Source of the DNA: a virus
Virus genome (UHGV): UHGV-1346345
Direction: 5' to 3' (one strand)
DNA: 10,007 nucleotides
How positions within the stretch are numbered: position 1 is the first letter of the stretch; each line of letters starts with the position of its first letter. Made by a program: the position numbers and the translations under genes. This document shows, piece by piece, positions 5,468 to 7,419 of this stretch. Below the pieces are notes generated by a model. That model was not told the DNA's origin. It ran no database searches and saw only the letters and a list, made by a program, of their open reading frames with translations.

Positions 5468-7419
5468 CACCGAAGACCCGACCATGACAGGGAAGTTAAG
5501 GTCTGGTGCTATCAAGCGTTTTAAAGCCTGCCTGAAGAAAGTTGCGGATCCGTATATCGCCATACTGGACAGAATACAATACACCCTGGCTGTTAATAAA
5601 AAATACACCTTCCAGATCTACATCGACGAATTACATGATTTGCTGGAAGACGCCAGCGACATGATTGATGAAATATTCGAGTTAACAGACCCGGAAAACT
5701 TCTGGTTCTGGCAGGAATACGTAAAGGTGGCATATCAGCGAGGCACTTCACAGGAATATGCCAACCTCGCTAACCAGTCAGTCACATATTCCAGGGCTTA
5801 CCCTGAAGTGTCGGCGGTATTAACCAGTCAGACCTATCGCACACGCCTTGCCCTGGTCCGTACCCGTGTATTTGAAGAGATGCGCGGGCTTACCGCACAG
5901 ATCAAGAAGGATATGGCCCGCCGATTAACTGAAGGCATGGCCCGCGGCTTAAACCCACTCGAAATAGCGCGTACATTGCAGCAGGAAACGCAATTGCCGC
6001 TATACAGGTGCAAACGTATTGCCCGTACTGAAATATGCACAGCGTTACGCACAGCGCGTATGGATGAGGCAGAGGCCGCATCGGATGAGCTTAATTTGCG
6101 CACGATGCAGATGCATATTTCGGCATTGTCACCGACTACCAGGCTGTCACACGCACAGCGACACGGGAAAACGTACACCATAGAAGAGCAGCGCGAATGG
6201 TGGAGCAGATCCCCTAATTCAATTAACTGTTACCTGCCGGGAACGGTTGTACACGATCCTCAATAGCGGGGTCAATCAATTGACGATCCAGATTANNNNN
6301 NNNNNGCGTTTCCTGCTGCAATGTACGCGCTATTTCGAGTCGGGAACGGTTGTACACGGCAGGTTTTTAGCTGGTTCAAAAGCGCATTACAGCGGGGAAG
6401 TCATCAAGATAATGACTAGAAGTGGCAGGAATCTCACCGTTACCCCTAATCACCCCATTATGACCAATCGCGGATTGATTCCGGCGGCAGAAGTCAACAA
6501 AGGAGATTATGCCGTTGCTTACAGCGGTAAGATCAAAAACACGATGCGGGTAACTAATCTGGATCGTCAATTGATTGACCCCGCTATTGAGGATGTTTTT
6601 AGTTCTCTCTCTGATATCGGCAAGTCTATCTCTGCAAGGGTGAGTGCTGTAGATTTCCACGGCGACGGCGGGGGAATGGATAAAAATATCGATGTTGTAA
6701 CCGCCGATGGGGAACTGGTTTTCACACCAGATGCCATGTGCAATGAGACTCTCGATAATCTCGCGCTCAAACATGCCAACTCGATCAAAGCGCCTGTGTT
6801 TTGCTCTTTTGGCTATAACAGCAGCGCTATCACGGCTTCCTCTTCTTGTGGTGAAAGCTGGTTCAGTAACAGCCCGTCTTTCGTCCGCAGAGAGATTTTT
6901 GTACCGTTCAAGCGCTCCTTCCTGTCGAGTTCTGTAGTGGAGGCCGTGCTTATCAAACAAGCGGCAAATGGCAATCCTACTAAAGCCGATGCGTTTACTT
7001 ATGGATTGGATGCTTTCCCCGGCGACGTGTCTGGCATAGAGTTCGTCAACGGTAAAATATTTTTCAATAGCTTTATCTGCGTTAGAGATGGACTTGAATC
7101 CGGCGCTTTTCATAGAAGTGATAACGTCTACCGTGGTTGTGTTAAACATCAAGGCGATATTATCGATACTCGTGCCGGACAGGTATTCTTTGATGAAGTC
7201 ATCGACATTGTTGTTAGCTATTATTCTGGTCATGTTTATGATCTCCAGGAGTTATCAGGTTTAATGATAGCAAATGGATTAATTGCGAGCAACTGCAAAT
7301 GTAGCACGATTACCGTATTAGTTGATGAAGACGGTAATATATTAAACAAACGAATATTAGATCGGGCGCAAGAAAACTATAAGGTTGCGCACGCTAAATA
7401 TGGCGAAGATTGGGAGTAA
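5409..7419 (+). CDS. head morphogenesis protein (Mu F / SPP1 gp7-like) precursor containing an intein; frame broken by the gap block at 6256-6358
   Basis: N-extein 5409-6227 (alternative starts 5412 or 5457) carries Mu F-like motifs (RIARTE, HISALSPTTRLSHAQRHGKTY). C-extein 7294-7419 is CKCSTITVLVDEDGN... The frame is continuous once the 103-bp artefact is removed. Confidence 0.7.
6238..6358. repeat. 18-bp direct repeat (6238-6255 and 6341-6358, cgggaacggttgtacacg) flanking the N10 gap 6296-6305 and two inverted copies
   Basis: 6256-6295 is the reverse complement of 6555-6594 (40 bp) and 6306-6340 is the reverse complement of 5957-5991 (35 bp). Collapsing the direct repeat and deleting 6256-6340 restores the intein frame (...CYLPGTVVHGRFLAGSKAHYSGEV...). 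Confidence 0.85.
6376..7233 (-). CDS. HTH-containing Vsr/DUF559-like (PD-(D/E)xK) endonuclease ORF, antisense and nested inside the intein
   Basis: 285 codons open on the - strand. GGAG lies 9 nt upstream of ATG (7231-7233 on -). Two HTH-like segments (SIDNIALMFNTTTVDVITSMKSAGF; SIQSISKRIGFSRIAICRLFDKHG). C-terminal EREIIESLIAHGIWCENQFPIGGYNIDIFIHSPAVAVEIYSTHPCRDRLADIRERTKNILNSGVNQL matches the DUF559/Vsr-like pattern as I recall it. The last ~60 aa are antisense to Hint blocks A/B and may be read-through. Confidence 0.4.
   Translation of the reverse strand: MTRIIANNNVDDFIKEYLSGTSIDNIALMFNTTTVDVITSMKSAGFKSISNADKAIEKYFTVDELYARHVAGESIQSISKRIGFSRIAICRLFDKHGLHYRTRQEGALERYKNLSADERRAVTEPAFTTRRGSRDSAAVIAKRAKHRRFDRVGMFEREIIESLIAHGIWCENQFPIGGYNIDIFIHSPAVAVEIYSTHPCRDRLADIRERTKNILNSGVNQLTIQISYPHRVFDLTAVSNGIISFVDFCRRNQSAIGHNGVIRGNGEIPATSSHYLDDFPAVMRF

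Follow-up and report, generated by a model that had tools for sequence, protein, structure and literature searches.

The 10,007-nucleotide (nt) stretch of the viral genome UHGV-1346345 analyzed here (hereafter the window) holds the head-gene module of an mEp-type coliphage, and its Mu F-like (MuF) head morphogenesis gene probably contains a mobile intein whose own homing endonuclease is encoded antisense, inside the intein itself. The MuF gene lies on the + strand and is interrupted by an insert of 321 amino acids (aa). On the minus strand of this insert, at 6376..7233 and in the codon-aligned antisense frame, lies a nested gene for a 285-aa protein with two helix-turn-helix (HTH) domains and a Vsr/DUF559-like nuclease domain, the putative homing endonuclease. 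A wider proposition stands, in our judgment, at even odds: these nucleases would form a widespread Vsr-like homing endonuclease family (hundreds of 50%-identity clusters) found only as antisense overprints of MuF inteins, about 130 codons would do double duty for folded and selected parts of proteins unrelated to each other (on one strand the Hint N-lobe with a 70-residue insert, on the other the catalytic domain and tail of the nuclease), and block F of the intein would dictate both the start codon and the ribosome-binding site of the nuclease gene.

The host gene starts at 5409 (+ strand). Its N-extein (5409..6227), recognized from its open reading frame (ORF) and from Pfam, is 273 aa long, ends in ...SPNSIN and is 98% identical to gp74 of phage mEp013. 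The intein follows, from TGT (Cys1) at 6228 to its end GCG AGC AAC (A-S-N) at 7291-7293, and the C-extein (7294..7419; CKCSTITVL..., 41 aa plus stop codon) opens directly 3' of it with TGC AAA TGT (C-K-C). The insertion falls exactly between the N and the first C of the conserved NC(K/R)C motif. A preliminary description of this DNA had proposed an intein at 6228-7293, splitting that motif in a Mu F-like protein, and it was right on both counts. The coordinates are exact; the insert matches Intein_splicing (PF14890) at 37.5 bits (cut-off 35.8), and its N-terminal region matches TIGR01445 intein_Nterm at 27.7 bits (cut-off 24.5). The spliced product matches Phage_Mu_F (PF04233) at 54.5 bits (cut-off 29.6; 2.2e-14) over residues 169-279 and profile positions 3-112 of 112, across the splice junction. 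Conceptual splicing to SPNSIN-CKCST, as that description foresaw, restores the HxNC(R/K)C motif in a gene located between the portal gene and the scaffold, decoration and coat genes. Phages mEp013, mEp010, mEp554, mEp044 and mEp021 carry both flanks at 94-97% nucleotide identity without the insert of ~1 kb. At this point mEp013 gp74 is contiguous and aligns without a gap to the conceptually spliced product (309/314 aa identical), and the empty-site DNA junction of mEp013, ...ATTAAC followed by TGCAAATGT, leaves a clean insertion point between ATT AAC and TGC AAA TGT.

The residues required for splicing are in place. Across 51 sequences there is no variation at Cys1 (Cys274 of the precursor), in block B (T-P-N-H), at the Asn that ends the intein or at the +1 residue Cys595, and G573, H574, V575, Y576, D577, S593 and N594 of the precursor are invariant or nearly so. 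Block A (C1-YLPGTVVH and the first base of codon 10) occupies 6228..6255, and the Hint N-lobe, residues 10-75, occupies 6358..6555, with the TxxH of block B, already picked out at the start, found as T38-P-N-H41 at 6442-6453. The Hint C-lobe, residues 271-321, lies at 7141..7293 with blocks F (GHVYDL) and G (ANGLIASN) and with Asn321 as its last residue. As had also been noticed, the penultimate residue is Ser and not His; close relatives share this Ser, which does not vary among 50 homologs and is a common, non-defining deviation among inteins. Between the two lobes, residues 76-147 (6556..6771, + strand) form an insert at the usual endonuclease-insertion position, modeled as helix-strand-strand-helix and antisense to the nuclease catalytic core, and residues 148-270 (6772..7140, + strand) form a stop-free spacer. 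The insert as a whole is a class-1 intein with a Hint fold, and cis-splicing of the 635-aa precursor is predicted from the conserved catalytic residues and the fold.

Taken on its own, this intein is of a known and ordinary kind. A search returned 94 homologous proteins, mostly intein-bearing precursors with PF04233 and/or PF14890, and PHROG 15127 is an intein-containing “head protein” family. The initial impression was that inteins are not commonly reported in phage head morphogenesis genes; MuF-type (COG2369) inteins are already catalogued (PMC4760082). Megablast of the window's intein against 5,426 complete E. coli genomes and 50,697 phage records matched nothing but an artifactual 38-nt inverted copy, and distant blastn finds relatives at 71% in Cronobacter phage ES2 and Vibrio phage vB_VaM_H2. 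An endonuclease in the sense frame was considered and rejected: Pfam, NCBIfam and PHROG searches found no nuclease in the sense frame of the intein, and residues 148-270 combine a very low model confidence (given below) with no detectable constraint in the + frame.

The antisense gene overlaps intein residues 16-301, and the overlap is complete (858 bp), with about 285 codons read both ways. Its translation start (7231..7246, minus strand) consists of an ATG at 7231-7233, which is the reverse complement of CAT, the codon of His301 in block F, and of a Shine-Dalgarno (SD) sequence GGAG at 7243-7246, 13 nt upstream, which is the reverse complement of CTCC in Asp-Leu-Gln. Its stop codon TGA is the reverse complement of the Ser16 codon TCA, and from residue 16 on the Hint N-lobe is also, on the minus strand, the C-terminal tail of the nuclease. 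AlphaFold2 builds the antisense protein (predicted local distance difference test, pLDDT, 72.5) as two HTH modules, a helical linker and an alpha-beta-beta-beta-alpha-beta-alpha core, a confident prediction of a Vsr-type PD-(D/E)xK nuclease fold. The HTH modules, residues about 9-43 and 62-95 (6949..7209), are seen both as modeled helices and as matches to HTH_7, HTH_23, HTH_28 and HTH_SB. The nuclease domain, residues about 155-263 (6445..6771), carries the invariant D182 (6688-6690) and E193 (6655-6657), and the residues conserved in the family are the acidic E156/E158, D182 and E193, plus His198. The structural neighbors of the protein include a proven homing endonuclease of a split-intein-associated family (PMC3239194). 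When nine family members were compared with Pfam, REase_MTES_1575 was found in seven and DUF559 in two, together with several HTH families; PHROGs, NCBIfam and PDB-sequence profiles gave no specific nuclease family beyond HTH and weak Vsr/DUF559 signals.

The family is large. A word-indexed protein search with 6 homologs had suggested a rare one, and this was overturned when 1.84 billion cluster representatives (clusters at 50% identity) were searched exhaustively with HMMER, 790 of them matching with E<1e-30. Nearly all of 57 sampled nuclease relatives carry the C-terminal motif (Y/H)(G/R)V(I/V)xGxG, and this motif is the antisense reading of the Hint block B TVTPNH. In Enterobacteriaceae prophages, a homolog carries the NCBI name “helix-turn-helix domain-containing protein,” and its gene is annotated as nested on the strand opposite the gene for a 577-aa Phage_Mu_F protein. 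Within the family, some members of a group of relatives (P0113, P0115, P0118, P0123, P0131, and P0170) have 3-5 HTH repeats, and the 836-aa P0123 apparently consists of HTH repeats almost throughout. In a second subfamily, the window's EIYSTHP is replaced by the classical Vsr-like motif EIFGGxWHxxGxH.

The nested arrangement is unanimous. Viral contigs scanned with the nuclease alignment gave 79 loci, with nuclease identities of 26-50%, and further loci came from ES2, vB_VaM_H2, three prophage loci, one metagenome contig and the window. In 85/85 loci there is a single contiguous precursor ORF with the nuclease on the opposite strand, and in the same 85 the codon-aligned frame opposite the nuclease is open over the entire nuclease match, as part of a MuF ORF of 530-1040 aa; both frames are open or nearly so in all of them. 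The host is always a MuF domain, at times fused to the portal protein, and the intein always sits at the HxNC(R/K)C site, between its N and the following C. At loci L078, L079 and L081, intein and antisense nuclease lie within portal-MuF fusions of 1000-1040 aa and not within stand-alone MuF genes. At locus L072, and also at L069, L073 and L074, the intein apparently starts with Ala and not Cys (...HYRGR before AELPGN...) and ends in ...ISHN before C(T/A/V); this lineage may represent an Ala1-type intein variant that retains the antisense nuclease gene.

Coexistence of the two frames has a price in codons. Within the nuclease gene, TTA, CTA and TCA are stops in the intein frame, and the gene must therefore exclude them if the host gene is to survive. 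None of the three occurs in a non-redundant set of 42 nuclease genes (<80% aa identity), while in flanking genes they make up as much as 50% of Leu and Ser codons. The chance of such a complete absence is about 2e-6 for the window (13 Leu and 23 Ser, with flanking frequencies of 0.31 and 0.30) and about 4e-11 for the AT-rich locus L064 (GC 37%); the summed log10 P is -109, a value that treats lineages as independent and so overstates somewhat. The start signals are kept as well. The block F His codon is CAT in 34/35 non-redundant loci with His at this position (a chance of about 1e-9 if both codons were used equally), the other being CAC, which gives GTG, and an SD-like motif (GGAG or the variants AAGG, GAGG, and GGAA) stands 12-13 nt upstream in about 26/40 loci.

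Which frame is under selection changes along the intein. Among close pairs, substitution rates at the three codon positions of the precursor are those of normal coding sequence in the exteins (0.028, 0.019, 0.172), are suppressed at all positions in intein residues 16-75 (0.033, 0.010, 0.020), and look in residues 76-284 like those of a gene encoded on the opposite strand (0.140, 0.070, 0.092). Single-nucleotide codon differences were then classed as silent (S) or replacing (N), with the effect in the precursor frame given by the first letter and that in the nuclease frame by the second. The rates of SN, NS and NN changes are 0.293, 0.011 and 0.012 in the N-extein, 0.029, 0.033 and 0.007 in intein residues 16-75, 0.035, 0.048 and 0.005 in residues 76-147, and 0.026, 0.122 and 0.017 in residues 148-270. 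Changes that are silent for the nuclease and alter the intein (NS) are thus ~2.5 times rarer in residues 76-147 than in 148-270 (24/504 vs. 89/730; chi-square about 20). Amino-acid identity, computed in both frames over 39 diverse loci, runs in parallel: 0.455 (+ frame) and 0.365 (minus frame) for intein residues 16-69, 0.317 and 0.389 for 76-147, and 0.160 and 0.300 for 148-270. Where just one frame of this alignment is coding, identity in the other frame is about half as high, a “shadow” ratio that residues 148-270 reproduce in mirror image and above which both 16-69 and 76-147 stand.

Structure prediction follows the same division. In the AlphaFold2 sense-frame model, which was built on window positions 6358-7416 and lacks the first nine intein residues, pLDDT is 91-98 for residues 10-69 (the TIGR01445-matching N-lobe), 71-90 for 76-147, about 30 for 148-270, and 77-98 for 271-320. 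From the substitution classes, the two-frame identities and this profile together, intein residues 16-147 (nuclease residues 155-285) are best regarded as truly dual-coded, with both frames under purifying selection, and residues 148-270 as a stop-free passenger spacer, selected in the nuclease frame alone and predicted to be disordered. The confidence of the model for residues 76-147 could partly mirror conservation imposed by the other strand, so that a sense-frame function of this segment is suggested at most.

The reading that we favor, a mobile intein with its own antisense homing endonuclease, would work as follows. The + strand would be translated straight through the 321-aa insert, and the Hint domain (residues 1-75 and 271-321) would excise itself and join ...SPNSIN to CKCST..., restoring N-C-K-C. 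The antisense protein, with its two HTH modules and Vsr-like nuclease, would be the homing endonuclease of the element. It would cleave MuF alleles that lack the intein, at the AAC/TGC junction or close to it, when phages co-infect a cell or a phage meets a prophage; the copy with the intein would serve for repair, and the element would thereby spread as a whole. The overlap has three zones: purifying selection on both frames in intein residues 16-147, a selected nuclease frame opposite a freely evolving intein spacer in 148-270, and, in 271-301, a nuclease start codon and ribosome-binding site set in the antisense of block F (GHVYDLQ). As to origin, a free-standing Vsr-like endonuclease gene plausibly inserted in reverse at the usual endonuclease-insertion loop, an inverted counterpart of step II/IIIa in the model of Dassa et al. 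(PMC2677866); TTA, CTA and TCA would then have been purged, the nuclease ORF reading through into the antisense of the Hint N-lobe. Several observations weigh against this reading, and they are given here with the alternatives.

It is unlikely that the antisense gene is real without being a homing endonuclease, and is instead a regulator, an anti-defense or exclusion nuclease or a domesticated resident, in an intein that is immobile or has moved otherwise. HTH-nuclease fusions fill many roles, and cleavage of intein-less MuF alleles and the homing that would follow are predictions. The nuclease has no sequence-level similarity to characterized homing endonucleases: a PDB-sequence profile search gave the DUF559 protein 3hrl alone, at E 0.19, and did not recover 3r3p at E up to 10. 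The window copy's own MTES_1575 and DUF559 scores lie below the gathering score, and one relative weakly matches the nuclease region of an anti-phage protein (ProA, E 1e-5, far below cut-off). Set against this, the gene is confined to this intein and to one conserved site in all 85 loci with DNA, nearly all sampled relatives keep the tail that mirrors Hint block B, and a proven homing endonuclease is among the nearest structural matches.

Intein and nuclease also appear to be transferred as a unit between diverged exteins, which speaks for homing in the same way. Loci L037 and L038 have N-exteins of 73-87% nucleotide identity and a 100% identical intein and C-extein, the switch in identity falling at the N-terminal splice site; there are 0 differences in about 570 intein sites vs. 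85/169 at silent extein sites. The pairs L005/L007 and L015/L016 resemble them in how intein and exteins diverge. Identical inteins in diverged exteins are consistent with the footprint expected of recent homing, but ordinary recombination could also produce them. In L005/L007 both exteins diverge, whereas in L037/L038 the C-extein is identical along with the intein and the N-extein has diverged; this contrast suggests asymmetric co-conversion tracts at a presumed homing site. Occasional decay of the nuclease alone likewise fits a homing cycle: L060, L063 and L068 each have one stop in the nuclease frame and a precursor frame that is still open, and they are candidates for its degeneration phase. 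These stops are reachable only by substitutions that give Leu or Ser codons in the intein spacer.

It is highly improbable that the element is an ordinary intein with a divergent, unrecognized sense-frame endonuclease or linker, and that the minus-strand ORF is a non-functional “shadow” of it. Open antisense frames do arise by chance, the codon-aligned one being open in 15% of control windows, and in GC-rich phages the per-locus chance of lacking the three codons reaches 0.18; it is the lineages of low and medium GC, together with unanimity, that carry the statistical weight. For the substitution contrasts, 12 clusters were used (one contrast each), aligned by their precursor frame. The minus strand is predicted to be transcribed and translated; a sigma-70 consensus scan of 6100-7700, run with a terminator scan, found nothing usable upstream of the antisense ATG at 7233, and the sole minus-strand match would begin transcription within the antisense ORF. 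A mere shadow would hardly account, however, for a minus-strand product with confidently predicted Vsr-type and HTH folds, for an ATG and SD sequence kept by codon choice in block F, or for residues 148-270, where NS changes far outnumber SN changes in rate (0.122 vs. 0.026), identity is higher in the minus than in the + frame (0.300 vs. 0.160), and the sense product has a pLDDT of about 30 and no family match.

A further point against the reading of an antisense homing endonuclease is that the N-terminal intein sequence of the window is a reconstruction across an assembly artifact. As given, the + ORF is broken: 5409..6266 ends at a stop at 6264-6266, after CYLPGTVVHDPQ, and a second + ORF, 6247..7419, picks up beyond a run of 10 N at 6296-6305. 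Directly before this gap, 40 nt (6256-6295) repeat 6555-6594 exactly in reverse complement; directly after it, 38 nt (6306-6343) do the same for 5954-5991, and a 17-nt direct repeat, GGGAACGGTTGTACACG, flanks it at 6239-6255 and 6342-6358. Deletion of the 103 nt at 6256..6358, which comprise the chimeric contig ends and the scaffold gap and are taken as artifactual and not biological, fuses the two ORFs in frame, and 5409-7419 then encode one 635-aa precursor made of a 273-aa N-extein, a 321-aa intein and a 41-aa C-extein. The rebuilt join, NSIN-CYLPGTVVHGRFLAGSK, matches the intact genes of ES2 and vB_VaM_H2 without gaps, an agreement far beyond chance. The window has six such 10-N runs (249-258, 783-792, 5092-5101, 6296-6305, 8053-8062, and 9637-9646), all bordered by exact reverse-complement copies of sequence 225-540 nt off; given these inverted copies beside all six, the runs are best read as scaffold joins with chimeric contig ends, that is, as assembly artifacts. 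That the intein ORF is itself an assembly chimera or a dead gene, not contiguous and with MuF truncated, is suggested by the gap with its chimeric flanks and by the stop at 6264-6266, but can be dismissed as the least credible explanation, since the artifact pattern recurs around all six gaps, the collapse of the 17-nt repeat restores the frame exactly, and the restored sequence is ungapped against complete phage genomes and prophages with intact genes of 577-629 aa.

Compared with known systems, the element shares with canonical endonuclease-containing inteins (PI-SceI and TliVMA, with LAGLIDADG or HNH domains in frame) its in-frame position in a conserved motif of an essential gene, a Hint fold that bears Cys1, TxxH, Asn and +1 Cys, a large insertion that separates the N- and C-lobes at the standard position, and signs of horizontal spread. 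It differs from them in that the putative endonuclease would be a separate opposite-strand protein and not part of the intein polypeptide, and in that, over most of the “endonuclease region,” the sense strand yields an unconstrained spacer predicted to be disordered. Homing endonuclease genes have reportedly been described in antisense in nuclear group I introns, in work by Haugen and Johansen. Those cases would be alike in having an opposite-strand homing endonuclease gene inside a self-splicing element; they differ in that an intron is non-coding and has no second frame to keep open, whereas here the opposite strand stays a translatable, foldable protein.

Parallels also come from phage “fractured genes,” where a free-standing Vsr-like (EDxHD) or GIY-YIG endonuclease gene lies between the halves of a split intein, on the same strand, with the host gene divided into two trans-splicing ORFs and with overlaps of 6-69 bp (PMC2677866); in 2009 Vsr-like and GIY-YIG domains were stated not to be known in inteins (PMC2677866). 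These systems, and the intron-encoded I-Bth0305I (PMC3239194), share with the present one a setting in phage genes and the tie between an intein and a separately translated Vsr-fold nuclease with N-terminal DNA-binding modules. The fractured genes also have the nuclease gene at the endonuclease-insertion position of the intein, with coding overlap. They differ in that here the host ORF is contiguous and would splice in cis, and in that an inverted nuclease gene overlaps the intein over the gene's full length. The window's nuclease has no sequence-level match to 3r3p. The catalogued MuF inteins (PHROG 15127, and the 14 inteins listed in COG2369 in Table 3 of Novikova et al., 2016; PMC4760082) belong to the same host family and presumably to the same intein family; in the searched text of these surveys, the intein is described alone and a nested antisense gene goes unmentioned. 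Within the literature covered by full-text search, no published description of an antisense endonuclease gene within an intein was found. The fully overlapping, putative antisense endonuclease gene is a new form of intein/homing-endonuclease organization.

Inteins are thought to gain mobility either by in-frame fusion with an endonuclease or, as in fractured genes, through a free-standing endonuclease gene that splits the intein. The present locus points to a third solution, in which the intein stays unbroken, the endonuclease gene lies within it in reverse orientation, and the purging of three codons from that gene keeps the host frame open. If this is true, expression of the nuclease would be decoupled from that of a highly expressed late structural gene, and the integrity of its frame would be tied to an essential phage gene. 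The locus would also offer a natural, homology-anchored case of long antisense dual coding, the reality of which is debated in prokaryotes and phages, and it is a strong natural example of it. It would further account for the absence of a recognizable endonuclease domain in these ~320-aa inteins, and would mean that one-strand gene calling systematically conceals a large nuclease family, one that has no PHROG and that NCBI names merely “HTH domain-containing protein.” Should the wider, evenly poised proposition also hold, the overlap would rank with the longest and best supported of the functional antisense overlaps known between phage genes, and the intein would carry its mobility function in a new way. 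In practical terms, the Hint domain would tolerate an arbitrary spacer of ~200 residues, and the nuclease is a candidate new site-specific enzyme.

The remainder of the window completes the head-gene module. The small terminase gene (1529-2029) and the large terminase gene (2529-4016) are followed by the portal gene (4074 to about 5467), the MuF gene, and the scaffold, decoration and coat genes; the N runs break the portal, MuF and several downstream ORFs as these are listed for the window. Between the two terminase genes, which in mEp013 adjoin directly with nothing in between, a + strand ORF at 2042-2545 encodes a 167-aa HNH_3 endonuclease (Pfam 3.5e-22), a putative second, free-standing homing-endonuclease-like insertion in the same phage as the intein.

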